Assembly: GCA_964616045.1 (NCBI GenBank)
Contig: CAZTTU010000005.1
Location: 1 to 53,344, forward strand
Reading direction: 5' to 3'
Origin: an uncultured Verrucomicrobiota bacterium
Lineage (GTDB): Bacteria > Verrucomicrobiota > Verrucomicrobiia > Limisphaerales > UBA1100
Length of the DNA: 53,344 nt
This document shows positions 3,576 to 53,344 of this stretch, one piece after another (the first letter of the stretch is position 1; every line of letters starts with the position of its first letter). The translations under genes were made by a program, and so were the position numbers. Below the pieces are notes generated by a model. It searched no databases and was not told the DNA's origin. It saw nothing but the letters and a program-made list of their open reading frames with translations.

Positions 3576-3872
3576 TTAGCTCTCGATCACGTTGATCTCC
3601 ACCGGCTCCACCTTGATACCCTTGCGCTCAAGCCATTTGGTAGCCATTTTCAAATCCTCACGTAAGCCTTCCATCTCCAAGCAGACGATGCCAATCTCAT
3701 CGCGAACCTCCGCCTGACGAATGTTGACCACAAGTTCAAAGCAAGTGACCAGTTCGTAGATCACCGGAGAAGTGATGTGCTTGGGCGGGTACATGAGCCA
3801 CAACCGCAACCGTTTCTTGGCTGACCCCTTCTCTGCCTTTTTTCTGGTCGCCCTCTTTTTCTTTGTAGGCAT
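3576..3872 (-). CDS. Stand-alone NIL-domain protein
   Basis: PVIYELVTCFELVVNIRQAEV...GIVCLEMEG...WLERKGIKVE matches the NIL (ACT-like) pattern; basic N-terminal tail. Confidence 0.8.
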   Translation of the reverse strand: MPTKKKRATRKKAEKGSAKKRLRLWLMYPPKHITSPVIYELVTCFELVVNIRQAEVRDEIGIVCLEMEGLREDLKMATKWLERKGIKVEPVEINVIES

Positions 3873-3876
3873 AAGC

Positions 3877-4152
3877 TCAGCCGCCGGCGATGGCAGGAAT
3901 GATGCTTACCTCGTCACCGTCCTTGAGCGGAGTTTCCTTTTCCTGCAAGAAACGAATGTCTTCCTCATTGACGTAGACGTTAACGAAGCGGCGAACTTGA
4001 CCCTTCTCATCAAGCAGTCGCTCCTGAAGACCGGGGTAACGACTCTCTAATTCGGCGATAGCATCGCCAATGGTCTCTGCACTGGTCTCCACCATTTCCT
4101 CATCGTGGGTGAGCTTACGTAGCGGGGTGGGGATTCGGATTTGAACTGGCAT
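3877..4152 (-). CDS. MoaD/ThiS/CysO-family ubiquitin-like sulfur carrier
   Basis: IPTPLR...FVNVYVNEEDIRFL...LKDGDEVSIIPAIAGG, ending in a free C-terminal GG. Confidence 0.92.
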   Translation of the reverse strand: MPVQIRIPTPLRKLTHDEEMVETSAETIGDAIAELESRYPGLQERLLDEKGQVRRFVNVYVNEEDIRFLQEKETPLKDGDEVSIIPAIAGG

Positions 4153-4159
4153 AATTTAT

Positions 4160-5419
4160 TTAGATGGAGGTTAGGGATTTATCACTGTCCAGCAGTGCAT
4201 CAAACTCGCGCAGGCTTGGGCTGATTTCGCAGGTGCGACCAGCATTGTTCTCTACCGCATCGAGGGTCTTGAGCCCATTGCCGGTAACACACAACACGGC
4301 GGAATCATCGGCGGGGATGGCACCGCTGGCAATTAGTTTCTTGGCCACACCCACTGTCACACCACCGGCCGTCTCGGAAAAAATACCTTCGGTCTCGGCC
4401 AAAAGTTTGATGCCCTCACGAATCTCATCATCCGTCACATCTTCTGCCGCTCCGCTGGTTTCATTGAAAACTTTCAATGCGTAGAATCCATCCGCTGGAG
4501 TACCGATGGCGAGACTCTTGGCAATAGTGCTGGGTTTTACTGGTTTGAAAAAATCCTGCCCGTCCTTGAACGCCTGGCTGATGGGCGAACAGCCAGTGGC
4601 TTGAGCCCCATGAACACTATAGGGCGTCCCCCTCACCAAACCAACCTTGACGGCTTCCTGATAGCTCTTTTGGATTTTTGTGAGCAACGAGCCGGAAGCC
4701 ATCGGCACCACGGTGTGCTGCGGAATTTCCCAGCCAAGCTGCTCGATAATTTCATAACCCTGACTTTTGGAACCTTCAGCGTAATAGGGCCGCATGTTCA
4801 CATTCACAAATGCCCAGTTATATTTGCCGGCAATCTCCGCACACAGGCGATTCACCTCGTCGTAGTGGCCCTTAATGGAAATTACATTGGCATTGTATAT
4901 AAGAGAATTGACAACCTTGCCCTGCTCAAGGTCGTGAGGGATAAACACAAACGCCTTTATGCCGGAAGCCGCTGCGTTGGCGGCAACGCTGTTGGCAAGA
5001 TTGCCGGTGGATGCGCAGGCCACCACCTCGTAGCCCAGCTCACGCGCGCGGCTCAAGGCCACGCTCACCACGCGATCCTTGAACGAGAGCGTCGGGTAAT
5101 TGACCGTGTCATTCTTGACCCAAAGCTCGCGAATACCCAACCGCTTGGCAAGGCGATCCGCCTTGATAAGTGGCGTGAAGCCCACCTCGAGACCCACCGT
5201 GGGTTCCTTGGCCACGGGCAACAGTTCACGGTAACGCCACATACTTTGTGGCCGACTGGCGATGGATTTGCGGGTGAGCTTGCTCTTGATACGCTCATAA
5301 TCATACACCACCTCGAGCGGTCCAAAATCAAACTCACACACATGCCGCGCCTCGAGCGGATACTCCCGCCCACATTCGCGACACCGCAACGCCTTCATGT
5401 ATCCCTGCTGTTTTGCCAT
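4160..5419 (-). CDS. thrC: Threonine synthase-family PLP enzyme (possibly a sulfhydrylase)
   Basis: PTLSFKDR PLP-lysine motif, CASTGNLA and VTGNGLKT; N-terminal CxxC. Confidence 0.85.
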   Translation of the reverse strand: MAKQQGYMKALRCRECGREYPLEARHVCEFDFGPLEVVYDYERIKSKLTRKSIASRPQSMWRYRELLPVAKEPTVGLEVGFTPLIKADRLAKRLGIRELWVKNDTVNYPTLSFKDRVVSVALSRARELGYEVVACASTGNLANSVAANAAASGIKAFVFIPHDLEQGKVVNSLIYNANVISIKGHYDEVNRLCAEIAGKYNWAFVNVNMRPYYAEGSKSQGYEIIEQLGWEIPQHTVVPMASGSLLTKIQKSYQEAVKVGLVRGTPYSVHGAQATGCSPISQAFKDGQDFFKPVKPSTIAKSLAIGTPADGFYALKVFNETSGAAEDVTDDEIREGIKLLAETEGIFSETAGGVTVGVAKKLIASGAIPADDSAVLCVTGNGLKTLDAVENNAGRTCEISPSLREFDALLDSDKSLTSI

Positions 5420-5463: not shown

Positions 5464-5484
5464 CGAAAAACGTTTGCACCAAGG

Positions 5485-5595
5485 CTCATCTTTCCGGCTC
5501 CCGCCGGCTGGATTTGGCACCTGGACATCGAAACGCGCCGCTTCAACCGGTTGCCGTGACATCAACGGGCCAGACCCTCCGTCACTCTTCATGAG
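5485..5595 (-). ncRNA. SAM-I (S-box) riboswitch aptamer
   Basis: Minus strand CTCATGAAGAG...GGAGGGTCTGGCCCGTTGA...CGGCAACC...GGTGCCAAATCC...AAAGATGAG is the canonical SAM-I conserved core. Confidence 0.93.
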
Positions 5596-5618
5596 CGCTC
5601 TCCGAAGAAAGCGAGAAA

Positions 5619-8582: not shown

Positions 8583-10217
8583 TTATCCTTGATATTTTTG
8601 TGCCACGGGAATTCGGCGACCTACACCAAAGGCCTTGCTGGCAACCTTCAGGCCAGGGGCCGCCTGTCTGCGTTTGTATTCATTGAGATCAATGAGGCGC
8701 ACGATGTGGCAAACCGTTTCCTCATTGAAACCAGCCGCAATGATTTGATCAACTGATTCATTTCCCACCACATAACGATCCAGAATCGCATCAAGGATTT
8801 TATACGGCGGAAGCGAATCTTCATCCTTCTGATCCGGCCACAATTCGGCAGAAGGTGGTTTCTTGATCGTAGCTTCAGGAATCACCTCGCGCTCCCGATT
8901 GATCCAATCCGCAAGGTGGTACACCAGTGTCTTGGGCACATCACTGATCACTGCCAACCCACCGCACATATCACCATAAAGGGTGCAGTAGCCCACGGCC
9001 AATTCGCTTTTGTTGCCCGTGGTAAGCACAAGGGGCCCGAATTTATTTGAAAGTGCCATCAAAAGCAGGCCGCGCAAACGCGCCTGCATGTTTTCCTCGG
9101 CAACATCCTCTTCGCGGTTTTCAAAGAGTGGCGACAGGCTTTCCTTTAGCGTTTCAAAAATCGTCTTGATCGGCACCACGTCATATTGGATGCCCAGGTT
9201 ATTTGCCAGGGTCTTGGAGTCATCCAAACTGCCTTGGGAGGAATATTGTGAAGGCATCGAAACGCCCCAGACATTTACTGCACCCAGCGCGTCAACCGCA
9301 ATTGCTGCCGTCACGGCAGAATCAATGCCGCCACTAAGGCCTATGACCGCGCGCGTAAAACCGCATTTTCCAAGATAATCGCGCACACCCAGAACGAGGG
9401 CATCATGGAGCATGACCACCTCTTCAGTTGCTCCCATCTCCACAACGGGCCCGTCAAGATCGCTTACCAGAACCGCTTCGGAAAAATATGGTGCCTGCTG
9501 GGTGATTTGACTTTCCGCGTTAAACACCAGACTGCCGCCATCAAAAATCAACTCATCATTACCGCCGACAGCATTGCAATAAATCAGCGGACGCTTAACT
9601 TTCGCAACCGTGCCTTCCAGCATCTCCCTGCGCATGCGATTTTTCCCGAGGCTCCAGGGCGAAGCAGAAACGTTGATGAGAAGCTCCGCACCCTGCTTCA
9701 CCAGCGATTCAACCGGGTTGGCGCGATACCGGCGGTCATCCCAAAAATCCTCATCGTTCCAGACATCCTCACAAATCGTGAGGCCGAGTCGGTGACCGTT
9801 CAGTTCGACCGGCGCGTTTTCCGTGGCCGGTTCAAAATAACGATCCTCATCAAACACATCGTAGGTGGGCAATAAACTCTTCGTTCGCGTGGCAGTAACT
9901 TTCCCATTCTGGATCAGGGACACCGCGTTGGTTGCCACGCGCCCGGGCTGCCTTTCATTCCGCCCCACATGCCCCACCACCAAGGCCGCCTCGCCCACAT
10001 GTGCCGCCAATTCATCCAGCGCCGCCAGGTTGCCCTCAACGAAACCACTCTTTAGCAGCAGATCGCGTGGCGGATATCCGGTGATTGCCAGCTCGGGGGC
10101 CACGACAATTTCCGCCCCGGCGGCTGCAGCCTCCTCATAGCCTTCGCGCAGGCGCGCGACATTCCCGGCAAAATCGCCCACCGTGGTGTTTATTTGCGCC
10201 AAGGCAACTTTCATCAC
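8583..10217 (-). CDS. nadE: Glutamine-dependent NAD+ synthetase
   Basis: Nitrilase domain (PEL/K/ICED) plus synthetase motifs SGGIDSA, TTGNKSE and EYKRRQA. Confidence 0.95.
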   Translation of the reverse strand: MMKVALAQINTTVGDFAGNVARLREGYEEAAAAGAEIVVAPELAITGYPPRDLLLKSGFVEGNLAALDELAAHVGEAALVVGHVGRNERQPGRVATNAVSLIQNGKVTATRTKSLLPTYDVFDEDRYFEPATENAPVELNGHRLGLTICEDVWNDEDFWDDRRYRANPVESLVKQGAELLINVSASPWSLGKNRMRREMLEGTVAKVKRPLIYCNAVGGNDELIFDGGSLVFNAESQITQQAPYFSEAVLVSDLDGPVVEMGATEEVVMLHDALVLGVRDYLGKCGFTRAVIGLSGGIDSAVTAAIAVDALGAVNVWGVSMPSQYSSQGSLDDSKTLANNLGIQYDVVPIKTIFETLKESLSPLFENREEDVAEENMQARLRGLLLMALSNKFGPLVLTTGNKSELAVGYCTLYGDMCGGLAVISDVPKTLVYHLADWINREREVIPEATIKKPPSAELWPDQKDEDSLPPYKILDAILDRYVVGNESVDQIIAAGFNEETVCHIVRLIDLNEYKRRQAAPGLKVASKAFGVGRRIPVAQKYQG

Positions 10218-16225: not shown

Positions 16226-16639
16226 TCAGGGCGCTGCAATTTTCTCTTCCTCCAATATATGATGCAGCTCACCGCCAGCTTCACTAATTGCCTCAATGAC
16301 CGGCTCAAAATATACCGCCGTTACCTCATGGTGCACCTTTACCATTACCGTTCGTTTCCCGGAAGGGTTTTCTCCCAGCAACACCTTTAACTCCTCTGCC
16401 AGTGCGTTCACGGAAGTTTTTCGACCGTTCAGGTGAGTTACATTATGTTTATCAATCACCACGCTGGCATTCATCGTGTCGGGACGCACCAATTCCTGCC
16501 CAGGTGCCGGCTTCCATTGAAGATGACTGTCATCCCGCGCGCGGGCAAGGATCACGAAAAAAATTAACAGCAAAAATGCAATATCCCCCATCGCCATGGC
16601 GGGTATCGTTGCATCCATCTGCCTGCGTTTAACGATCAT
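16226..16639 (-). CDS. exbD: ExbD/TolR-family motor subunit (second copy)
   Basis: MAMGDIAFLLLIFFVI TM with the conserved Asp; periplasmic domain ending VIEAISEAGG. Confidence 0.88.
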   Translation of the reverse strand: MIVKRRQMDATIPAMAMGDIAFLLLIFFVILARARDDSHLQWKPAPGQELVRPDTMNASVVIDKHNVTHLNGRKTSVNALAEELKVLLGENPSGKRTVMVKVHHEVTAVYFEPVIEAISEAGGELHHILEEEKIAAP

Positions 16640-17058
16640 TTTACCTGAACGGTTTGTTCCTCCTCCAATTGCAGCGTAATCACGCCACCAGCACCCTCAA
16701 TAAGTCCTGTCACGTGAATCCAGTGGCTGTAGGGTACTTCTTTGCGGCTCTTAACCGTCACGATTTTATCCTCCTCACGGGTTTTATCTGCAAGCTTAAT
16801 GGCAATGGTCTTTTCAAAACGATCCGGTGTAAGCGGATTTCCATTTAAGATCACCGCATTACGCGTAAGTTCCACCTCAATGTTCTGGCTTTGCTTTTTT
16901 TTCTCCTTTTCAGGCTCACTCCGCGGCAGTGTCTGCGCCCTGCCCTTGTCCGGCTCCACGGAGGCGCAGACAAGAAAAAACACGATCAGTATAAACGCGA
17001 TATCGCTCGTGGCGCTGGCTGGCGGTTCCAGCAATAAACTGGTACGGCGCAGTTTCAT
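16636..17058 (-). CDS. exbD: ExbD/TolR-family motor subunit (first copy)
   Basis: ATSDIAFILIVFFLV TM with the conserved Asp; VPYSHWIHVTGLIEGAGG. Confidence 0.88.
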   Translation of the reverse strand: MKLRRTSLLLEPPASATSDIAFILIVFFLVCASVEPDKGRAQTLPRSEPEKEKKKQSQNIEVELTRNAVILNGNPLTPDRFEKTIAIKLADKTREEDKIVTVKSRKEVPYSHWIHVTGLIEGAGGVITLQLEEEQTVQVK

Positions 17059-17912
17059 GAATCCGATCGTTCCTCGGCTTTTTTCAGGGTGAGTTGCAGC
17101 GTCACCGCTTCCATCAACTCCGCAGCGGTTTCCTCTACATCAAGAACGAAGTTATTGATCACACTCGAGAAATAATTAAACGCCATGAAAGCCGGGATGC
17201 CTACCATCAACCCAAAACACGTGGTCAGCAGTGCAATAGAAATGCCCGATGCAGCTGCCTGAATGATGTTACCACCTCCGGACTCATCCATCTCAACGAT
17301 GTTATCGAAGGCAACAATCATGCCCTGTACAGTGCCCAGGAACCCAAGCATTGGCGCCACACTAGACACAATGGCGAGCACAGGAAGGTGCCGCTCCAAA
17401 GCTGCTACAATATGCACCCCATAACTTTCCATGCTTTTAACTACCTGCTCCTCCAGCCTTGCTGGGTCGTAGTTGAGCCGATTCAACACCATGTACTTCC
17501 TTAAACCGTTGGCAAGAACTGCCGCCACTGGCCCACGCTCCCCATCGCAACGTTCCAATGCCTCCTCCACTCGTTCATTGGTCAAGTCATCAAGCACAGC
17601 TTGGCGCAGGGCTTCGGTATTAGTGTCCAACATTTTCAGGCTACGCCATCGTTCAATAATTACCGCCAATGCCATGATGGCCATGATGAGGATAGGCCAC
17701 ATAAAAAAGCCGCCCTCCAGTAGCAGGCCAATGGCACCAGAATCGAATAAATCCGAAATCCATGACGGTTCAGCAACTGCTTCAACACCCGAGTCAGTTC
17801 CCGCTTCTGGTGTGGGCGCAGATTCTACGGATGCTGCGTTAGTTCCGCCGACATTCGTGGCGGAGGAATTCTTGTCCACTTCGTTGGTGACCTGGGCAAA
17901 TTGGACTAACAT
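17055..17912 (-). CDS. exbB: MotA/TolQ/ExbB proton-channel protein
   Basis: GGFFMWPIL...ERW, APMLGFLGTVQGMI and GISIALLTTCFGLMVGIPA. Confidence 0.92.
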   Translation of the reverse strand: MLVQFAQVTNEVDKNSSATNVGGTNAASVESAPTPEAGTDSGVEAVAEPSWISDLFDSGAIGLLLEGGFFMWPILIMAIMALAVIIERWRSLKMLDTNTEALRQAVLDDLTNERVEEALERCDGERGPVAAVLANGLRKYMVLNRLNYDPARLEEQVVKSMESYGVHIVAALERHLPVLAIVSSVAPMLGFLGTVQGMIVAFDNIVEMDESGGGNIIQAAASGISIALLTTCFGLMVGIPAFMAFNYFSSVINNFVLDVEETAAELMEAVTLQLTLKKAEERSDS

Positions 17913-17963: not shown

Positions 17964-20900
17964 TTAATTGTCATTGTCAATAGAATTAGCCTCGCTTTCG
18001 AATTGGGACAACATTTCCGGCAAGGCAAGGCGACCTCGTGCGTACTTTGCCGCATCACTCTCTGGGAAATCCCAGCGACAGCGATTATAACGGCGGAAAG
18101 CAAAAGACACATTGTTGGCGCTACGATAGCTTTCGCCTGCCCAGAATAACGCCTCTGAACACAATGGATCGTCCGGAAACTTCTTTGCAAAGAGGTCAAA
18201 CACCCCGCCGGCCTTGGCGAAGCCCTCATCCTTGTAATGGCACTGCCCCCAACGAAATGCCATTTTCGGAGCAAACTCATGGTCGGCAAAGCGATCCATG
18301 AATTTCTCAGCAACCTTCGCAGCGACTTTGTAATTTTCCCCCTTATAAAAATACTCGTTGATGCGGATCATCACGTTCGGGATCAGCGGATTCTTGGGAT
18401 AGGTCGCAGCCAGAGTAACATATTCCTCCAATGCACGATCGAAGTCATTCGCCTCTTCAAAACACTGCGCCAGTTTGTACTGCGCATCCGCAGCCAGAGT
18501 GTGGTTTGGATATTGCCGAACAATGAGCGCGTAACTGTTGGCGGCTTCATTCCAATCCTCCAGCTCCTGCGAGAATTGCCCACTCAGGTAGGCAATACGA
18601 GGCAGATATTTCGGATCTGGATAATCAACCATGATCTCCTTAAGAACCCGTCGACCCGCCTTGAGTGCTTTTTCACTTTCATCCTCACGCTCAAGTTTCA
18701 GGTTATTCTTGAATAATTCAAAATAGCTCTCGGCAATGTGGAATTGGGTCTGTACGGCGAGCTGTTGATTGCCAAATATTTTACTGAACGCCGAAACAAT
18801 TCCATCGGTACCAATCGCCACAGGCAACTCAACACTAAGCTCCACCTCGCCTTCTTCCGCTCCTGAGGCGGCATCTAAGTAGGTAGCAATAAGCTTGTCA
18901 CCAAAGAAGCACTCTATCTCCCTGTCAATATCGCTGAAGTTTAACGCAGTGGGTTTTTCACGCGCCTTCAATTCGAACGAGCCTACAAAAACGCCACTGT
19001 GACTAAGGGTTTCCTCCAAGGTCACTTTCTCGTTCTCCCCAGTTCCAGTGGCAATGCCTAACTCCGCCTTGTCTCGATCATCGGATATATCGAGATCAGG
19101 GTCGGCTATCATAACATAAAGTTTTTCTCCCACGCGCAACAGCTCCGTTGATTTTTCATAACCCTCGTCGGTTATGGCCATGGAACCATCCGTTACAAGC
19201 CGTGCCTTTGAGGATAAATCGACAGCCGTGGCATCCGGACGCACCTGGTCATGGTAAATGGCAGAAAGCAGCGACTTGCCGTTCACATTAAGCACGGTAT
19301 CCAGCAAGTTGTTGGATTCAGTTTCCTTATCCTCACCCGCGGGACGGGCAAGACCAGTAAGTCCAGAGCCGGAGCCCAGTGAGCGAGGCAGTCTAGAAGG
19401 GGAAGCCACGCCACCCAATTGCATTTTAACCTGACCCACAAATCTCCCCATCATGAGGGCGGCACTGGCTTGGCCTGATTCAACCCCAGAGACATCGCCG
19501 AATTGGGTGGATAACACACAAGTAATCTCCACCGCATTGGTGGTGCCGGCATCCAACTGCACGGTCACAGTACTCAAACTGTCCTTAGCAGCGTCGGGAT
19601 CGACTACCACCACAGTCAACGGCACGAAATAGTTCACACCCACAGGTTCTTCCTGACCTTCAGTTGCCGGCAGGAAAACCGCTTGCGGCTTGGCCTCACT
19701 GTCGGGCTGAGGCACGGTTCGGCGAGTACCGATGATGCGCATCACGCCATCGGTCGGTTCATTGGCAAAAACCACGGCCTCGCGTTGAACGGAATGACCG
19801 GGAAAGGTGTTCTGCAAATCCACATACCGACAAAACACTCGATCTCCCTTCCCGATCACCAGCTTTTCGCCATCGGCCTCTGCGGCAGTGTCGACCTCCA
19901 CCCGGAAAACACCGGAGTATTCCCCGATTTCGGTCGCGGTGAGTTCTTTCCATTTCACGCCGTTGGCCCAGATTTCCACAGGTACGGTATCGCGCTCATC
20001 GGTTTGGTCCATGTCGTAGTCAGTCACTTCAAAGGTGATGCGATCACCCGGGTCGATGCGCAGCAATTCCTTGCGCGTTTGCTGCACGCCACCTCCGACA
20101 TTGCGACTGAAGTCAAAACCGATTGGCAACACCTCCGCGTTGTTGTAGGTGGCCTGAAGTTCCCGCGTAAGCAACCGGCTACCACCTTGTGTGGCAATAG
20201 AGGTTTCGTCGGTATAACTGGCGGTAATCACGTCGCCACCGGCAATCTCCAATGTCTCATTCTCGGCCAACGTGCTCACGTCCACCTTGGTGGGGATAAA
20301 CGTTTTGTCTCCGTTTCGAATTTCAACGTGATTAATCGCCACCGAGTCACCCAAATATTCATCTATCTGGAACCGGGCGTAGCGTAATTTCACCGGATCG
20401 AAGAAAAATTCCCATTCCCGGTCGCGCTGGACCATTCCCACTTTCTCAGCCGGCCGCAATTCCAAGCCGGCCACATCCATCAAGCCACTGCCCTTGATTT
20501 CCAGCGGCTTGATCGAGAGCGCCTGTGGATCGGCAGAATCCACCATCATTATGCCTACCCGATGCCAAGCAAACGTGTTCCAGCCACCAGTCTTGGGCAC
20601 CTCCATTTCGATCAATTGATCTCCAAATTCCACGCGAAATTTCGATCCTCCATCCTGATGTGACAAATTCACCCACAACTCATACGCGCCGACATTGGGC
20701 ACCGTAAACAGCCACTTCATCGTGTCTTCTATATTCTTCCAATTTCCGATACGCTGAGCATTGTTTACGGTGATCACTCCGAATTTTTCGGTTTTTACGT
20801 GAAACTCCGTCTTGTTCATGTCCATCTCAATAGATTTTTGTGCGACGACAGCTTGGTCGGGCTTTAGGTCCAGGAATCTCTTGGCTGACTCCAAGTCAAA

Positions 20901-23900
20901 ATCCTCCACGGTAAAGGAATTCAATTGAGGATTGCTATTACTGTAATTGGATCGCGCCCGGGTGGCCTCGAGTGGTTTTTTGGCCGTCTTGTTCGCGACA
21001 AAGATGGCAATCTCATGTAAGCCAGAAGTCAGCCATACATCCACCGTTTTGACCTCTGCGGAGGGTTGCATCACCACCCGGCCATCCACAACCACGGCGG
21101 CCAAGTCACCCGTCACGCCAATGCGCATTGCGCCTTCCCGTAATTGCACTATTTGACCGTTCCACAAAGACGCGTGCGGCTGGTCGGCACCCTCAGCATT
21201 CGGCTCAGGAATCCACGACAATTCCGTGGCGTTTTCATCCAATATCGGTTTACCCGTGCGAGAAAGCGATACCACTTGGGACCAACTCTTAAGGCCAGTA
21301 TGGTCTCCGGAATAAATTCGCTGCCGTAGCTGGTCGGTTCGACCGGATACCGCTTCAGCTTGAGGCAGCATGGGGTGCGCAGCGATGGTAAACCAAAAAA
21401 CTCCGTCATGGCTGCCTAGCAGTGTACCACGCACAGGGTTGTTTTCCGAAGCATTGGGTGTGGCCACGCGCAAACGAGAAACGGTGTGCAGTTGTTTCAT
21501 GTCCACCGTCAGCAACTTAGGTGTTACGCCGTCAGGCTCGGATTGCCAGTAAGTATCACTGCTATGATCGATGGCCATCAGCGGGTTATGGTCAATTGCG
21601 CTGTCAGTGGCAGACGCGCCGGCGGGTAGCTCGGAAGTAGGAATGGCCGCGCGGAATTCGCCTGTGTGAGGCCCGGTCTCCAGCAATTCCACCTGCACCT
21701 GATCACCACTATTCGCTCGCAGGGTCACAGCCACCCGGTCGGGCTCATCACCAAGATCGCGGTCAACATCTTGCAGGCGCATGAAAATTCGGTTGCCTGG
21801 CTTTACTTGGTTGGATGGACGACCTTGGGAAACACGTCGGTCCTGATCTGCTTCTTCGGCCTGTTCGCGCTGAAGTTGTTGAGTGAGGGTTTCCTTTTCC
21901 ACGTCCACAATCTCACTGCTGGCCACATCAAATTGACCATCGGCTGCAATGCGTATTTCCACATCGCTAAGCGGCACGGTGCGAAACTGCGCCTTAAACT
22001 TAGCCGGGTAATCACTCTCGATCACGTCACGACCGGTGAGTTGTAGCAGTCCGTCATTTTTTTCCATGACACCCAGAGTGGTATCCACCTCTCCGCGGAA
22101 CAATCCTTTGCCAGCACCTGCCGTGCTGCGCAAATACACCAGTTCCTCATCGCCACCGGGTTTTGTGGTGACTACCACTGGAATACGATTTTTCCCGCGG
22201 CTCACACCCAAATCACGATCGTGCACCACGATGGACAATGCGTTTCCCGGAACATGCAAACGCTTACTGGCCTGTCCCAGTCGACCAACAGTACGCAGAA
22301 GGTTCAGCTGCTGCAGGTAACGCTGCTCCAGTCCGTAAATTTCCGACAAACTAAACAAGGTTCGGTTGGCCAGCTCCACATCCGGCACGCGCTCGAGGAT
22401 ATGCTGGAATTTCTCACGAGCCTCATCACGTTGTTCCTGCCGAAATGCCAGAAGGCCGTTGAGGAACTCTGCACGGATCGAAATTTGCAAATCCGGATTT
22501 TCTTCCAGTGATTTGAACATTTGGGAAGCTTGATCGTAGATTTTCTGACCCATGAACGATTCCCCAATACCAAACTTAGCCTCAATGGCGTGTGGTGTGC
22601 CGGAATAACGATTAGTCACCGTGGAATACTCCGCGCGCGCCACGTCATAGCGCTGCCCCTTGTAGTAGCTCTTGGCTAGCAATAGCTGCAAACGCGCCTT
22701 TGCGGTCTCACTTTGCTGCTTACTTTCGGGCTTATCGGGATCGGTAAACTTAATCAACCAGGAGCGCAGAATGTCCTCCACCTCCGCCAATTTTTCCTCG
22801 CCACCACCCGCCATCAGATGGGTGCAAACAAATTCAATCAAGTCCGGCGGCAGGTCGTTGCGATGCTCCTTAAACAACTCCACGTTGTCTTGATACAGCT
22901 CACGCGCCTTATCCCTGTCGCCCAGTCGAAGGTAAAGTGCCGCCTGCAACAGTGGAGCCAGCGGGCTGTCCTCGTCAATCGTCAACCCCACCGCGCCCAT
23001 GCGTGAATGAGCACGCAGCACCGCACCACGGCCTTCATCTTGTGACTCTTTTGAGGAGCTGGTTATGTTTGACAGCATACCCGTCAGAAGTGTTGCACTA
23101 TCGACGTAACGCTTCGCCTCAAAGGTCTTCTGCGCGTAGCTACGGATTGAGTTCCAGCGAGTCTGGTCATTGTTAATCGACTGCAAACGACCATTGGCCT
23201 GCGTAATTCGCATCAGCCGTAACAATCGCTGCATTGCGGGCTCCTGATCCAAGGCTCCCGCCAAGAGCAGATCACAGGTAGAATATGCTGATTGGTCACG
23301 CGTACGAATATCGCGCAAGACCTTGTAGACACTCAACTTGGCCACATCGTCCAGCACCTTAAAATCCTTATATGCTGGGTCTTCACTCTCAGTTAAAGTC
23401 TTGTTGTTATAGGCAAATTCACGCCAAGTATAACCCACGTCACGCCAACTCTGGCTTGCAAATGGCGTTTCCCTCGCCGTCGCCCGCAGCTTTTGCACAG
23501 CCTGTGAAAAAGCCGGAATATTACCCTGCAACCGCAGGATATCCGTGATCTTAAGGGCCGCAATCCGGTGTTTCAGATCCGGCCAACGATAATCGGCCTG
23601 CTCGCGCCATGGCTCAGGAGGATTACCGCCGTTGGCAAGAAATCTCTCCGCGCAATTACGCTCCTCATATCGGCCATGGGAAACGTTCGCATCAGACACT
23701 CGCCGCCACCAGTCCAACGCCTGTGTCTTTTGGTTGAATTTGTAGAGCACATCTCCGACATAGTCGCTGTAGGCAGTATCAATTGGAATCTTGATCGCCC
23801 ACTGATATATGGCCAGCGCCAGCGCAGGATCCTTGTTTAATTCGGCAACCTGCATCAGGCTGCGAACCAATCCGGAATTGCCTCTCTTCAAGGGTATACG

Positions 23901-25934
23901 CAAAATGCGCTGGGCATAGACCTTGGCTTGCGCCTTGGTCTCTTCGTTTCGGTTATCCTCCATCACCCATTGCAATGCAGTGTGATCATTGGGGTGTAAT
24001 TTCAGGAGCAATAATCCCAGTTGGTGCGCACGTTCCGGGTCACGTTTCTTGGCATAGCTGAACAATGTGCCGCGTTGGGTGCCGACGATGTGAAATTGAT
24101 TGTTTCGACCCATCTGAGCTAATCCCTTGATGGCCGCTGCGCGAACTGTCACGGCTTTTTTGGAGGAGGTTGAAGCTGATGAATAGTGCGTGATAGCCGC
24201 CAGCAGCGGTTCGGTGTTCTGCTTGGCCACTTCCGCGGCGATATATTGGGCCTTGGCCTTTTGATCCTTGTTGCCCTTATTAGCCGTGGCCCATCCCGGA
24301 AGGTAGTTTCGGTAGTTGTTGTCCAGAAAATGATCTCGCCGCTGCTTGAGCATAAGGGCCACGTCGGCGCGGAACTGGTTATTCAACGACTGGCGCGTCA
24401 ACAAGTCCTCGAACATCGAGGCCATCCAGCTGGAGTAAATTGCCACTTCCTTCACCGCCAAGCGCGCGTGAGCCAAGGCGGTGGCCTCGTTCTTCATCCG
24501 GTCCCGATACAGGTTGCGCGACAGCACGATCCGCAGGCCCAGCTTATCGGAGGGTCGCTTGGCCTGTGATATGGCTGCGGTAAGCGTACGACTGGCCTCA
24601 TTGGCTAGGGTGTTCACCGTGTTTTGCTTTGCGGCATGTGCGGCTGTATCAGTGCGAAATTTAACTTCAAGCGCTTGGCGCGCCTTCACGGCGTTGTCAT
24701 AGGCCACCTTGGTAGTCATTTTTGCGTCAGGATTCTTCGTCTTATTAAAAGTATCCAGCTTGATTTTCTCGTCCTTCCGGGCATTTTCCAGACTAGTCTG
24801 GGTCGCCATCTTGGTGCTGTTGGCTGTGTTGAGTTCACCCACCGCCTTGTCCATTAGCCACGTCACGTAGTTGGCCGCCATGCTGCCATCTCCAGCGGCA
24901 TGGGCCAGAGCCGGAACCACCGCGCGCGCAGCACGCATTGTATCTCCTTCGCGTGCATAGGCATTACCAATGCGATTGTAGTTACTCCAGCGCGCGTGCT
25001 CATTGGGAAAACGGGCGGCAAAGGAATTAACCTCCGGCACGATCTGAGCAGCCTTCATCGCAGCCTGATACATGGCGTAGATTTGCCGCTCATGCAACTG
25101 CCACCCTTCATTTGGCCGCCAACCTTCACCTTGACCGCGCGCCTGCTTCAAAGCCACCACGGCGTTGGCCCATTGGCTTTGGGAAATGAAATTTTCGGCC
25201 TGCAGCCGATATAATTCATGCCGAATGAGGCGCGTAAGTGGCAGCCCACCTTTCTTGAACATCTTCTGGATAACCTGATTGGATTCAACCCAGCGACTAA
25301 GATAACGATACTCACTCACCGCGCGCAAACCGGCGCGCAGGGTGTATTCGCCGCCGGGCAGTCTATCCAACAAGCTCTCGGCCATTTGAGCTGACCGTAT
25401 GCGCAAACGAGGATCCCCCTCTTGCCCGTACAACTCCGAGGCGCGCTCAGCCGCCGGTCGATTGGCGGCAACTGGCTTATGTTCCCACAAAAGACGCAAT
25501 GCATCAGCAGCCTCTCGTCGCTTCCGGTTACGCTCCAAGGCATCCGCCACGCGCAGCGCAACATCCAATGCCTCGGTTGAGCCAGAATATCGCGACAGGT
25601 ATTGACGCCCAACAGTGATAAGATCGTCGCGGCGAGCCATTACCTCTAATCCATCGATTAACTTTAACATCACCTCGCGGTGCTTGGAGTGCTTACTTTG
25701 TGCCTTTACGAATCTTTCACTCACACGCACCAAACCGAATACTCGACCTTCCTGGTAATATAGGTCAGTCAGTTCCAACATAACTTTGGCTGCTGCAGGC
25801 GAGGTATCAAGGCTTTTGGTAAGTTGGGTTTCCAACGCGGCAGCCTGTTTATCGATTGCGCTGGATTCAGGTTTATCAGCAGCCGACAGGAGTAGCGGGC
25901 ATGCGAGGAGAAAAACAATAAATCGGATTATCAT
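17964..25934 (-). CDS. Giant secreted TPR protein (2656 aa) with Ig-like repeats and discoidin-, PA14- and CBM6/35-like domains
   Basis: Signal peptide; N-terminal, central and C-terminal TPR arrays; five Asp-rich D-x-D...(ET)..(S/T)G.F beta repeats; AIDH...TYWQS...LTVDM (F5/8C-like); VPKTGGWNTF (CBM6/35-like). Confidence 0.85.
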   Translation of the reverse strand: MIIRFIVFLLACPLLLSAADKPESSAIDKQAAALETQLTKSLDTSPAAAKVMLELTDLYYQEGRVFGLVRVSERFVKAQSKHSKHREVMLKLIDGLEVMARRDDLITVGRQYLSRYSGSTEALDVALRVADALERNRKRREAADALRLLWEHKPVAANRPAAERASELYGQEGDPRLRIRSAQMAESLLDRLPGGEYTLRAGLRAVSEYRYLSRWVESNQVIQKMFKKGGLPLTRLIRHELYRLQAENFISQSQWANAVVALKQARGQGEGWRPNEGWQLHERQIYAMYQAAMKAAQIVPEVNSFAARFPNEHARWSNYNRIGNAYAREGDTMRAARAVVPALAHAAGDGSMAANYVTWLMDKAVGELNTANSTKMATQTSLENARKDEKIKLDTFNKTKNPDAKMTTKVAYDNAVKARQALEVKFRTDTAAHAAKQNTVNTLANEASRTLTAAISQAKRPSDKLGLRIVLSRNLYRDRMKNEATALAHARLAVKEVAIYSSWMASMFEDLLTRQSLNNQFRADVALMLKQRRDHFLDNNYRNYLPGWATANKGNKDQKAKAQYIAAEVAKQNTEPLLAAITHYSSASTSSKKAVTVRAAAIKGLAQMGRNNQFHIVGTQRGTLFSYAKKRDPERAHQLGLLLLKLHPNDHTALQWVMEDNRNEETKAQAKVYAQRILRIPLKRGNSGLVRSLMQVAELNKDPALALAIYQWAIKIPIDTAYSDYVGDVLYKFNQKTQALDWWRRVSDANVSHGRYEERNCAERFLANGGNPPEPWREQADYRWPDLKHRIAALKITDILRLQGNIPAFSQAVQKLRATARETPFASQSWRDVGYTWREFAYNNKTLTESEDPAYKDFKVLDDVAKLSVYKVLRDIRTRDQSAYSTCDLLLAGALDQEPAMQRLLRLMRITQANGRLQSINNDQTRWNSIRSYAQKTFEAKRYVDSATLLTGMLSNITSSSKESQDEGRGAVLRAHSRMGAVGLTIDEDSPLAPLLQAALYLRLGDRDKARELYQDNVELFKEHRNDLPPDLIEFVCTHLMAGGGEEKLAEVEDILRSWLIKFTDPDKPESKQQSETAKARLQLLLAKSYYKGQRYDVARAEYSTVTNRYSGTPHAIEAKFGIGESFMGQKIYDQASQMFKSLEENPDLQISIRAEFLNGLLAFRQEQRDEAREKFQHILERVPDVELANRTLFSLSEIYGLEQRYLQQLNLLRTVGRLGQASKRLHVPGNALSIVVHDRDLGVSRGKNRIPVVVTTKPGGDEELVYLRSTAGAGKGLFRGEVDTTLGVMEKNDGLLQLTGRDVIESDYPAKFKAQFRTVPLSDVEIRIAADGQFDVASSEIVDVEKETLTQQLQREQAEEADQDRRVSQGRPSNQVKPGNRIFMRLQDVDRDLGDEPDRVAVTLRANSGDQVQVELLETGPHTGEFRAAIPTSELPAGASATDSAIDHNPLMAIDHSSDTYWQSEPDGVTPKLLTVDMKQLHTVSRLRVATPNASENNPVRGTLLGSHDGVFWFTIAAHPMLPQAEAVSGRTDQLRQRIYSGDHTGLKSWSQVVSLSRTGKPILDENATELSWIPEPNAEGADQPHASLWNGQIVQLREGAMRIGVTGDLAAVVVDGRVVMQPSAEVKTVDVWLTSGLHEIAIFVANKTAKKPLEATRARSNYSNSNPQLNSFTVEDFDLESAKRFLDLKPDQAVVAQKSIEMDMNKTEFHVKTEKFGVITVNNAQRIGNWKNIEDTMKWLFTVPNVGAYELWVNLSHQDGGSKFRVEFGDQLIEMEVPKTGGWNTFAWHRVGIMMVDSADPQALSIKPLEIKGSGLMDVAGLELRPAEKVGMVQRDREWEFFFDPVKLRYARFQIDEYLGDSVAINHVEIRNGDKTFIPTKVDVSTLAENETLEIAGGDVITASYTDETSIATQGGSRLLTRELQATYNNAEVLPIGFDFSRNVGGGVQQTRKELLRIDPGDRITFEVTDYDMDQTDERDTVPVEIWANGVKWKELTATEIGEYSGVFRVEVDTAAEADGEKLVIGKGDRVFCRYVDLQNTFPGHSVQREAVVFANEPTDGVMRIIGTRRTVPQPDSEAKPQAVFLPATEGQEEPVGVNYFVPLTVVVVDPDAAKDSLSTVTVQLDAGTTNAVEITCVLSTQFGDVSGVESGQASAALMMGRFVGQVKMQLGGVASPSRLPRSLGSGSGLTGLARPAGEDKETESNNLLDTVLNVNGKSLLSAIYHDQVRPDATAVDLSSKARLVTDGSMAITDEGYEKSTELLRVGEKLYVMIADPDLDISDDRDKAELGIATGTGENEKVTLEETLSHSGVFVGSFELKAREKPTALNFSDIDREIECFFGDKLIATYLDAASGAEEGEVELSVELPVAIGTDGIVSAFSKIFGNQQLAVQTQFHIAESYFELFKNNLKLEREDESEKALKAGRRVLKEIMVDYPDPKYLPRIAYLSGQFSQELEDWNEAANSYALIVRQYPNHTLAADAQYKLAQCFEEANDFDRALEEYVTLAATYPKNPLIPNVMIRINEYFYKGENYKVAAKVAEKFMDRFADHEFAPKMAFRWGQCHYKDEGFAKAGGVFDLFAKKFPDDPLCSEALFWAGESYRSANNVSFAFRRYNRCRWDFPESDAAKYARGRLALPEMLSQFESEANSIDNDN

Positions 25935-33290: not shown

Positions 33291-33486
33291 TTTCTTTCCC
33301 TTTCAGTAAGGCAACCCAAAACGAGACAAGATTTATGCTGCCTTGACTGCCTTGAAATTTGCAACGGGAAATTTTCCCCAAATTATATAATTGGAGCTAT
33401 CATTCCATCTTGGCCGTCTCCTCTCCGGCAATCAACTGCAGCGAATCGTTCCCGTTGAGCGGTTTGGATGCCTCGAAGAAAAATGA

Positions 33487-33878
33487 CCTTGGAAGGGTTG
33501 TAAGCCGAATTTTGTCTGCACCGGTTGCCCGGCGGAGAGGATCATTTATCTATTGCGACCTTACCCGGAGCCGTGATCGTTTCCGATCATGGAGCGAACC
33601 GCCCCTAGCCCCCTATTTGGCCTTGCACCCAATGGGGTTTACCGTGCCGCCTCGCTTACGCTTGGCGCGGTGGGCTCTTACCCCACCTTTTCACCCTTGC
33701 CTCGACCAAAGCCGTGGCGGTTTGTTTTCTGTGGCACTTTCCGTCAGCTTTCCTCACGGATAAACTGCCCGCGTGTACCCCCGGCTGAACCAAGGTTACG
33801 CGGCATCGTGTCCTGCGGTGTTCGGACTTTCCTCTCCCAGCAAATCAATGCCGAAAGCGATCCTCCACCCTTCCAAGG
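33487..33878 (-). ncRNA. rnpB: RNase P RNA (class A)
   Basis: Minus strand GAGGAAAGTCC...GGAAAGTGCCACAGAAAA...GGTAAGAGCCCACC...GCAAGGCCAAAT...AGACAAAATTCGGCTTA (conserved regions CR I-V). Confidence 0.96.
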
Positions 33879-44375: not shown

Positions 44376-44451
44376 TGGTGGGCGATGAGGGATTCGAACC
44401 CCCGACCAACGGCGTGTAAAGCCGCTGCGCTAGCCGCTGCGCCAATCGCCC
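44376..44451 (-). tRNA. tRNA-Val (anticodon TAC)
   Basis: GGGCGATTGGCGCAGCGGCTAGCGCAGCGGCTT-TAC-ACGCCGTTGGTCGGGGGTTCGAATCCCTCATCGCCCACCA; 76 nt cloverleaf with encoded CCA. Confidence 0.96.
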
Positions 44452-51367: not shown

Positions 51368-52381
51368 TCAGCTGCGCCCAGCAGCCTTGAGGAAGGGCTT
51401 GATCTCGCGCATGAGTTTCCTGAAGGCATCCAGTGTAACCTGCTGAGCACCGTCACTCCAGGCCTCAGCTGGATTGGGGTGCACTTCGATGAGCAAGGCA
51501 TCAGCACCCATGGCCACCGCACCTTTGCAGAGTGTGGCAATAAGGTCGGCCCGGCCGCAACCCTGACTGGGATCGACAACCACCGGGCAATGCGACTCCT
51601 GTTTCACCGCGGGAATCGCCGAAAGATCCAGTGTGTTGCGCGTATAGTCTTCAAACGTGCGAATGCCACGCTCACAGAACATCAACCCGGGGTTCTCATT
51701 GGCCAAAATATATTCGCCGGCCAGCAGCCACTCCTCAATCCGCATGGACATGCCTCGCTTGAGCAGAACCGGCTTGCCCGTGCGCGCGGCAGCAATGAGG
51801 AGCTGAAAATTCTGCGCGTTGCGGGTGCCGATCTGGAGAATATCTGCATACTCGGCCACGAGGTCGACCTGATTCTGTGAAAGCAGCTCAGTGATAATTG
51901 GCATACCGGTCTCCGCACGCGCCTTGGCCAGCAGTTTGAGGCCCTGCTCGCCGAGTCCCTGGAATTCATAGGGCGAGGTGCGCGGCTTAAATGCCCCGCC
52001 ACGCAGGATCGTCGCGCCTGCCTTGCGTACGGAGTGGGCGGTTTCCATGAGCTGCTTCTCGTTCTCCACCGAGCAGGGCCCAGCCATCACGTGAAATTTC
52101 TTTCCACCAATCACGCGCTTCCCCACCTTGACGGTGGAGTTTTTCCCGTGCGCCTCACGACTCACGAGACGGAATCGTTTCTGGATAGGCATCACTTTCT
52201 CCACCTGCGACCACGATGAGAGCGTCTCCAGCGATGGATTTTTCTTTTCATCACCAATGGCGCCAATCACCGTATGCGCCACCCCGCGCATCACGTGCGG
52301 CTCATAGCCTAGCTTCCTGATTTCGCGCAGCACACTATTCTCCTGGCGCTTCGTGATCCGGGGTTTGAGGACGATGATCAT
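51368..52381 (-). CDS. aroF: DAHP synthase, class I-beta with N-terminal regulatory domain
   Basis: AGPCSVE, RGGAFKPRTSPY, LLKRG, CERGIRTF and EVHPNP. Likely start MIIVLKP. Confidence 0.93.
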   Translation of the reverse strand: MIIVLKPRITKRQENSVLREIRKLGYEPHVMRGVAHTVIGAIGDEKKNPSLETLSSWSQVEKVMPIQKRFRLVSREAHGKNSTVKVGKRVIGGKKFHVMAGPCSVENEKQLMETAHSVRKAGATILRGGAFKPRTSPYEFQGLGEQGLKLLAKARAETGMPIITELLSQNQVDLVAEYADILQIGTRNAQNFQLLIAAARTGKPVLLKRGMSMRIEEWLLAGEYILANENPGLMFCERGIRTFEDYTRNTLDLSAIPAVKQESHCPVVVDPSQGCGRADLIATLCKGAVAMGADALLIEVHPNPAEAWSDGAQQVTLDAFRKLMREIKPFLKAAGRS

Positions 52382-52490
52382 AAAAAAACGAAACCTAATG
52401 GCCTTGCGCAGACCGGTCAATCTCCATCGGGTTAGCTCATGTCGTGCTCAAGCTTGCCTTTATCCATTATTGCGCCCTACTCTCTGCTCC

Positions 52491-53024
52491 ATGAAAAACA
52501 TCATTTACTATACTGCCCTACTGCTAACTACTTTGAGCCTATCGGCCGTCGAGCCAGCGTTGGAAGGCAGCCGTGTACGCGAGGCCCTCGATGCCTTGCA
52601 AGGCAAACCCGCCCCCGAGTTACAGCTTAAGGGCTGGCTCAATTCCAAGGCGCTTGACCTCAATCAACTCAAGGGCAAAATCGTAGTCCTCGATTTCTGG
52701 GCCACCTGGTGCGGTCCATGCATTGCATCCATCCCACACACCAATGAGCTTATGGGAAAATATGCCAACAAGGGCGTGGTAATAATCGGCGTATGCGCCC
52801 AACGCGGAGCAGAGAAAATCGAAGCCACCGTGAAGGATCGAGGCATCCAGTACCCCGTTGCCATTGACCAAGGCACCAATGCCGCCTACAAGGCCAACAG
52901 CTACCCAGACTACTACATCATTGATCGCAAGGGCGTACTGCGCTGGGCGGATATCGTGAATAGAGACGTGGAAAAGGCCATCAAGCACCTTTTGGCCGAA
53001 AACCCGGAGACATCCTCCAAATAA
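52491..53024 (+). CDS. TlpA-family thiol-disulfide oxidoreductase
   Basis: Signal peptide; LKGKIVVLDFWATWCGPC and YP..YIIDRKG. Confidence 0.9.
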   Translation: MKNIIYYTALLLTTLSLSAVEPALEGSRVREALDALQGKPAPELQLKGWLNSKALDLNQLKGKIVVLDFWATWCGPCIASIPHTNELMGKYANKGVVIIGVCAQRGAEKIEATVKDRGIQYPVAIDQGTNAAYKANSYPDYYIIDRKGVLRWADIVNRDVEKAIKHLLAENPETSSK

Positions 53025-53083
53025 TTGCCCGATAAACCAATCCACTTGGGGGGCCGGATAATGGTTCGCGCGCCTGACAGGGC

Positions 53084-53344
53084 AAAAAAATCACCGCCCT
53101 AAAGCGAACCGAGGTTCACCGTAGGGCGGCTACCAATCCTTTTCAAGGGGCTCCCTTTCGAGAGTACTATCAAGGTCTATGCCTTTGGTGCGGCAACAAT
53201 CATCCAGCCCCACAACTTTCCCGAAAGAAAGCCAACCCGCAAACCCGAAGGTCATTAGGCCTAGGTGAAAACTTCTCCCCGAGGGGTTCAGTTTCCGTGG
53301 CCGGTTGATCGACCGAGCGATTCCGAAGATCCGCTCAACGCGAT
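53084..53344 (-). ncRNA. 3' portion of a highly structured non-coding RNA (truncated by the window edge)
   Basis: Six hairpins on the minus strand capped by UUCG (x3), CUCG (x2) and GAAA tetraloops. The last is followed by a U7 tract. No ORF is called here. Confidence 0.7.

Follow-up and report, generated by a model that had tools for sequence, protein, structure and literature searches.

A structured, terminator-ended small RNA outside the Rfam 15 families at the edge of a Limisphaerales (Verrucomicrobiota) contig

The window, that is, the whole 53,344-nt stretch of DNA analysed (contig CAZTTU010000005.1), comes from an uncultured Verrucomicrobiota bacterium of the Limisphaerales. Its right edge (53340–53084, minus strand) is a near-complete gene for a structured small RNA (sRNA) of about 257 nt, with the promoter cut off. 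Scanning the whole window with Rfam 15 at the gathering threshold returned only three matches, none of them in the right-edge region. The genes and features referred to below are listed here.

5483–5597, minus strand: SAM riboswitch (Rfam, 76.2 bits), upstream of a same-strand operon
33485–33876, minus strand: RNase P RNA, bacterial class A (Rfam, 246 bits)
44379–44451, minus strand: a single tRNA (Rfam, 68.4 bits)
51368–52420, minus strand: DAHP synthase (Pfam DAHP_synth_1 plus FXD)
52491–53024, plus strand: AhpC/TSA-redoxin gene, convergent, lying between the sRNA and DAHP synthase in the window and in the related locus L001
53084–53340, minus strand: the predicted sRNA in full, 257 nt, running from its putative 5′ end (the block onset in a six-sequence alignment) to the last terminator U

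The operon downstream of the SAM riboswitch encodes a PLP-dependent enzyme (4163–5419), a ThiS-family sulfur-carrier-like protein (3880–4152) and a NIL-domain protein (3579–3872). The RNase P RNA is without one hairpin of the model (model positions ∼283–305 are deleted in the Rfam alignment) and is overlapped by a spurious plus-strand ORF (33359–33760). A minus-strand ORF of 2656 aa (17967–25934) had TPR/YfiO-like matches at its C-terminus only, and its neighbors are another TPR protein on one side, and ExbB and two ExbD genes (16229–17912) on the other. For the DAHP synthase ORF, the listed start is a TTG (350 aa); the alignment with most relatives begins only at residue 13–14, which corresponds to an MIIVLKP start at 52381 (337 aa). 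In relatives, tRNA-Val(UAC) lies at a similar distance beyond DAHP synthase, indicating conserved synteny over at least 7 kb.

The predicted sRNA is organized, in order, into H1, H2, the H3 domain, H4, H5, H6 enclosing H8 (plus H7 in long forms), H9, a 20-nt tail and a two-tier terminator. Its parts in the window copy are as follows.

53315–53336, minus strand: H1, GAGCGGAUC-UUCG-GAAUCGCUC, with a 5-bp stem, an internal loop, a 2-bp tip and a UUCG loop
53299–53314, minus strand: H2, a 5–6 bp stem with a RUCARC loop, stacked directly on H1
53267–53296, minus strand: H3 domain, GGAAACU..CCC-CUCG-GGG..AGUUUUC, with a stem, a purine-rich internal loop and a CCC-CUCG-GGG tip
53234–53261, minus strand: H4, a 28-nt hairpin with a UUCG loop, of which GACC-UUCG-GGUU is the tip
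53214–53233, minus strand: H5, GGCUUUCU-UUCG-GGAAAGUU, an 8-bp hairpin that is longer in relatives
53172–53211, minus strand: H6, the closing stem around H8 (53196–53179), with the further hairpin H7 inside it in the long forms of relatives
53151–53164, minus strand: H9, CUCUC-GAAA-GGGAG, GNRA-capped, with GCAA in relatives
53131–53150, minus strand: 20-nt tail CCCCUUGAAAAGGAUUGGUA, immediately 5′ of the terminator and identical in six of six sequences
53084–53130, minus strand: intrinsic terminator, a two-tier, GC-rich hairpin with a CUCG tip (53130–53092) followed by A and U7 (53091–53084)

All six hairpins and the U7 tail named in the original prediction of a hairpin-rich minus-strand stretch were present at 53084–53340, together with two helices absent from its list, H2 (53314–53299) and the H6/H8 domain (53211–53172). 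G-U pairs made up 17 of the 71 pairs of the window copy in the curated structure, which places the RNA on the minus strand. The minimum free energy (MFE) of the 265-nt stretch was -107.7 kcal/mol on this strand (z = -3.06), with none of 200 dinucleotide shuffles as stable, and -86.3 kcal/mol on the plus strand (z = -2.51). The terminator site was also flagged by a simple terminator scan. The call of a real structured non-coding RNA on the minus strand, with an intrinsic terminator, is supported. For the tetraloop density, hairpins in which a UNCG or GNRA loop is closed by four or more contiguous pairs were counted in 2655 sliding windows of 261 nt. The density reached four per 261 nt at the sRNA, the maximum for the window, compared to a mean of 0.39 on that strand, and was matched only by the SAM riboswitch region. 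The density is above that of ordinary DNA, as had been claimed, though one of the four hairpins is probably spurious.

Relatives were gathered by a genome-contig search with the DAHP synthase of the window, which yielded 80 loci, nearly all from Verrucomicrobiota/Limisphaerales metagenome-assembled genomes (MAGs). The top DAHP synthase identity among them was only 92% (L001), so that the window's own genome is not among the 80 loci. Blastn, nhmmer with --max and a covariance model (R1) built on the 110 nt at the 3′ end all detected the RNA in the same five of the 80 loci, and in no other part of the 1.21 Mb. DAHP synthase was the bait for these loci, and a copy at another place in the same genomes would escape this count. 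R1, run over 81 sources (1,213,829 bases), recovered the six known copies only, and the next best match (E = 0.15) was the window's own terminator on the other strand. The convergent redoxin gene stops 69 nt before this weak plus-strand match (53093–53129), and the hairpin may therefore end both the sRNA and the redoxin transcripts. Counting the window, there were five distinct RNA sequences, all from one narrow clade. The copies in the relatives are these.

L001, 4771–5027: 257 nt
L025, 956–1294: 339 nt
L005, 992–1316: 325 nt
L003, 1094–1418: 325 nt, RNA identical to that of L005
L007, 9562–9897: 336 nt

Stability was also high in the relatives, with z values of -3.48 (L001), -3.81 (L005) and -7.34 (L007), and no shuffle was as stable in any of them. 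Three equally close loci (L002, L004, and L006; DAHP synthase identity 87–89%) were without the RNA, a TMEM164-family membrane gene abutting the redoxin gene in its place, and in these the RNA is either dispensable or elsewhere in the genome. It was not near DAHP synthase in any of the 72 more distant loci. The suggestion that the element is multicopy and broke the assembly at this point found no backing. There was one copy in the 53-kb window by blastn and one per positive locus in the 1.21 Mb of related DNA, no edge repeat accounting for the contig break was detected in the window by blastn or with nhmmer, and the 5′ flank in relatives was ordinary, single-copy DNA, occupied by an alpha/beta-hydrolase-like gene or by tRNA-Lys.

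The boundaries were read from an alignment with flanks (A1). Conservation was patchy upstream, became absolute from CGTTGAGCGG, corresponding to window position 53340, and ended past the terminator U-run at 53084; it rose from ∼70 to 100% exactly at the CGUUGAG onset. Upstream of the RNA, a conserved block of ∼80–105 nt was kept in five of five relatives despite differing upstream genes. In all five it included TGnTAnnnT 14–15 nt before the onset, with TTGG at about -34 and A/T-rich sequence at about -40 to -50. The layout of TGnTAnnnT and TTGG can be read as that of an extended -10 sigma-70 promoter. Upstream of the putative 5′ end, only 4 nt remain before the window edge. Because in relatives the invariant block starts at the equivalent of 53340, after the promoter-like block, the window would hold the whole RNA without its promoter, which probably lies just beyond the edge, as judged from the motif conserved in alignments of relatives. 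The supposition that the element is the 3′ end of a large non-coding RNA is not supported. Extending the locus upstream for its 5′ end and promoter, by way of the five relatives, gave a conserved onset and a promoter-like motif; the promoter part was not matched by a strict consensus scan, which found no sites upstream of the RNA in L007, L001, and L005. Further upstream of the putative promoter, at about -60 to -73, is a CCGG-N7-CCGG dyad (L001 4692–4770, L007 9456–9561, L005 912–991; degenerate in L001 and L025), which may represent a binding site for a transcription factor or form a short hairpin in RNA.

The secondary structure was curated from single-sequence folds and a second alignment (A2), giving 93 pairs over five distinct rows, with 440 cells. 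Pairing was possible in 91.4% of these cells, compared to 34–57% when the 3′ partners were slid by 1–3 columns, a control that is flattering because the same sequences gave the structure. Ten pairs were changed on both sides, compared to 6.9 ± 1.5 in shuffles, 24 of 500 of which reached ten; 14 cells had double changes, a number reached in two of 500 shuffles. The covariation score was 0.184 against 0.148 in shuffles (reached in 0 of 500), and “further pair types” were no higher than in shuffles (448 of 500). The covariation is modest, and appears supportive but not decisive, given five closely related sequences.

Individual helices differed in how this support was distributed. H1 was near-invariant in sequence, seven of its nine columns never varying, and in L025 and L007 its internal loop was a tandem G.A. 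H2 was paired in 96.6% of cells, with one-sided changes at two pairs (G-C/G-U and U-A/U-G). Two pairs of the outer H3 stem were changed on both sides. H4 showed both-sided changes in two pairs and one-sided changes in four, and the 3 × 3 internal loop of its window copy was paired in relatives. RNAalifold proposed long-range pairs competing with this local hairpin; they were set aside, as H4 was 28 nt long in every sequence and its changes were compensated. H5 was paired in 100% of cells with two pairs changed on both sides, H6 in 94.3% and H8 in 88.6%; H6 was weaker in the window copy, which has CU compared to UC in relatives. The H8 loop had a conserved CCA (ACCA in four of the five distinct copies, GCCA in L025). 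The terminator had compensatory changes in relatives, with three pairs changed on both sides.

Differences in length were accommodated by whole hairpins. The long forms, found in four relatives, add 42–53 nt of extra hairpins in the H3 domain, lengthen H5 and add H7, and each added piece is a self-contained hairpin with a UUCG or GNRA cap, which is independent support for the structure. Invariance, stems included, extended over columns 1–31 and some 55 nt of the 3′ block, and the middle varied by compensation. The invariance of the ends could also reflect nothing other than a short divergence time.

Comparison of the window with L001 revealed 87.2% identity (31 substitutions) in the RNA. The flanking spacers were less conserved, with 61.5% for the 3′ spacer and 62.4% for the redoxin–DAHP synthase spacer, as were the coding sequences of redoxin (79.9%; third positions 59.6%) and DAHP synthase (81.9%; third positions 56.2%). 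The substitutions in the RNA were spread over the three phases as 10, 8, and 13. Open frames jumped phase and strand among homologs, so that none was conserved, and a 70-codon frame at the window edge had no Pfam match. A protein-coding reading was rejected on these grounds; the element does not code for protein, and purifying selection acts on both its sequence and its base pairs. Long spurious open frames on both strands of the locus can easily be mistaken for “hypothetical protein” genes when MAGs are annotated.

No known family accounted for the RNA. The Rfam 15 families covered include MISL, GOLLD, ROOL, OLE, HEARO, raiA, 6S, SRP, tmRNA, and group I and II introns. At the permissive cutoff of E ≤ 10, the window region gave four matches, all of 12–16 bits compared to gathering scores of 33–60, and the best of them, at 15.6 bits where the gathering score is 40, was to an unrelated viral element. 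The 336-nt copy of L007 with its flanks (9456–10000) gave seven matches at the same cutoff, of 13–17 bits compared to gathering scores of 60–95, and at the gathering threshold L007, L025, and L003 contained tRNAs only. ARAGORN found no tRNA or tmRNA gene in 52800–53344. An rRNA trailer was ruled out, there being no rRNA upstream in relatives. As had been expected, the element is not a housekeeping RNA, and RNase P RNA sits elsewhere in the window. The proposal that it belongs to MISL or another large Rfam class did not hold: no Rfam 15 family matched at the gathering threshold, and MISL matched neither the window copy nor the 336-nt relative at E ≤ 10.

In the literature, MISL, which the original prediction associated with Verrucomicrobia, appears as an Rfam family in figure legends (PMC10925082), and the terms “MISL,” “Verrucomicrobia,” “Pedosphaera,” and “Planctomycetes” do not occur in the main text of PMC5737381, the supplements of which may list Verrucomicrobial motifs. 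Literature searches, at the level of their listings, returned no description of such an RNA or of a lineage-specific structured RNA from Verrucomicrobiota. The sRNA is thus outside all Rfam 15 families and so far narrowly distributed, and it is of a familiar kind, the stand-alone structured bacterial sRNA.

The interval between RNA and DAHP synthase bears on whether the RNA acts on its neighbor. In four of the six loci (L003, L005, L007, and L025) the RNA immediately precedes DAHP synthase on the same strand, a terminator lying between them, as would be expected of a cis-regulatory leader, riboswitch or attenuator, with the terminator as the regulated element. Among 43 translation start regions in the window, that of DAHP synthase moreover formed the best duplex with the tail (-23.0 kcal/mol). 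However, 28 of 50 shuffled tails did at least as well. Shuffles formed as good a duplex with the DAHP start region in six of 200 cases for the window copy, and in 46, 149, 170, and 200 of 200 cases for L001, L025, L005, and L007, respectively. The idea that the tail pairs with the start region of DAHP synthase was rejected on this basis. Because the duplexes are unconserved in the four relatives tested and that of the window is matched by shuffled tails, a leader or attenuator role is unlikely. In addition, the convergent redoxin gene intervenes in the window and L001, so that RNA and DAHP synthase do not share a transcription unit there. DAHP synthase also keeps its own promoter-like motif downstream of the terminator (conserved TTGACC...TAGGTT, ending ∼10 nt before the MIIVLKP ATG), in loci both with and without the RNA. 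Judging from where this motif lies, the DAHP mRNA may have almost no leader. An alternative antiterminator fold was not seen, and the linkage is itself biased, as the loci were retrieved via DAHP synthase; taken together, this makes the leader reading very improbable. In L007 only, a GC-rich palindrome (9897–10000) separates the RNA terminator from the putative promoter of DAHP synthase.

On the upstream side, the RNA could instead be a 3′ UTR, or an sRNA derived from one, made without its own promoter by read-through or processing from an alpha/beta-hydrolase-like gene. A weak ORF of this type ends 76–101 nt upstream on the same strand in three of the five relatives (L001, L003, and L005), the window is cut before its own upstream gene, and the consensus promoter scan was empty. 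We nevertheless hold this origin to be rather unlikely, since the upstream gene is tRNA-Lys(UUU) in L007 and an unrelated ORF in L025, and both keep the TGnTAnnnT block at -14/-15 and the sharp CGUUGAG onset, at which conservation rises so abruptly. As regards a strongly diverged 6S, SRP, Ms1-like, MISL or other large non-coding RNA missed by the Rfam models, size and stand-alone gene layout resemble 6S/Ms1-type RNAs, and Verrucomicrobiota may be thin in Rfam seed alignments. The low scores at E ≤ 10, the absence of a tmRNA by ARAGORN and the RNase P RNA elsewhere in the window speak against such a relationship. 6S RNA is rod-like, with its 5′ and 3′ ends paired and a large central bubble. Here, in both MFE and consensus folds, the 5′ end was taken up by H1 and H2, which are local hairpins, and the 3′ end by the terminator, so there was neither a 6S-like closing stem nor a central bubble, and we regard a missed family as highly improbable. 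Least probable of all, to the point of being barely credible, is that the locus is a palindromic element of the REP/MITE type, repeated or mobile, or else a pseudogene in decay or a gene for a short protein. Such an origin might be read into the presence of the RNA in only some equally close relatives, the 70-codon frame running off the window edge, or an IS200-like Y1 transposase ∼700 nt upstream of the RNA in L007 (8345–8839), which is found at this locus only. The element was single copy throughout the window and the 1.21 Mb of related loci, had no match in plasmid and phage collections (blastn, “distant” mode) and was more conserved than the neighboring coding DNA; its frame was unconserved, without a Pfam match, and its substitutions showed no phase bias.

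On balance, we consider it somewhat more probable than not that the locus encodes, in one complete copy, a stand-alone structured sRNA that ends at a terminator, acts in trans and belongs to a subclade of the Limisphaerales. Transcription would start at about 53340 from a sigma-70-type promoter just outside the window, as relatives suggest. The RNA would be released at the terminator and would act in trans, independently of its neighbors, because the upstream block is kept with differing upstream genes and the redoxin gene separates the RNA from DAHP synthase.

The invariant 20-nt tail is a candidate effector site. A search for conserved complementarity among unpaired segments singled out the H8 loop (UACCAA), which is complementary to UUGGUA in the tail. 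The pairing was possible in 29 of 30 cells, with two one-sided changes of loop A to G opposite U and no double changes, and a shuffle test was uninformative because the tail is invariant. This candidate pseudoknot between the H8 loop and the tail is a lead only.

The mechanism we favor, tentatively, is that of a shape-dependent protein-binding or scaffold RNA, because of the invariant ends with their stems, the compensating and expandable middle, and the possible tertiary contact. The invariant H1–H2 and the invariant 3′ block (H9 and tail) would be the recognition surfaces, and the variable, expandable central hairpins would serve as a stabilizing scaffold. Next in likelihood, and more doubtful, is a base-pairing regulator that would use the C-rich/AAGGA tail as a seed. 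A Pfam survey of the 41 window ORFs revealed no gene for Hfq, CsrA or another RNA chaperone nearby as a hint of a partner.

Comparison with known systems places the sRNA among several types without making it a member of any. Like MISL RNA, it is a multi-hairpin bacterial non-coding RNA of unknown function; the difference is that the Rfam MISL model matches neither the 257-nt window copy nor its 336-nt relative. With the 6S/Ms1-type RNAs, which bind RNA polymerase, it shares a stand-alone gene, a structured RNA of ∼200–300 nt, its own terminator and possible protein binding, but it is without their 5′–3′ closing stem and central bubble, its 5′ hairpins are local, and Rfam 6S does not match. The string of hairpins, the intrinsic terminator and the putative own promoter recall the CsrB/RsmZ-type sponge RNAs. 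Two conserved unpaired GGAU motifs occur, in the H6 junction and the tail; unlike in those sponges, however, the loops are UUCG, CUCG and GNRA and do not bear GGA, candidate sites are far fewer, and there is no Rfam match. The raiA, OLE, ROOL, GOLLD, and HEARO RNAs are likewise conserved and ornate, with function unknown and with variable peripheral hairpins around conserved cores, but the sRNA described here is smaller (257–339 nt), so far observed in one narrow clade, and not matched by their covariance models.

Verrucomicrobiota are abundant and mostly uncultured. It is conceivable, though unlikely, that the RNA is the founding member of a compact, tertiary-folded RNA class of marine and freshwater Limisphaerales, acting as a dedicated ribonucleoprotein subunit or as a ligand-binding or catalytic RNA and not as an ordinary regulatory sRNA. 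The features of such a class would be the invariant terminal domains, the candidate loop–tail pseudoknot and the expandable peripheral hairpins. An RNA of 257–339 nt that grows by whole hairpins and keeps invariant ends is tractable for structure probing and for a wider covariance-model search. If it proves to be widespread, it would join the few families of structured RNA in bacteria that are still orphans.
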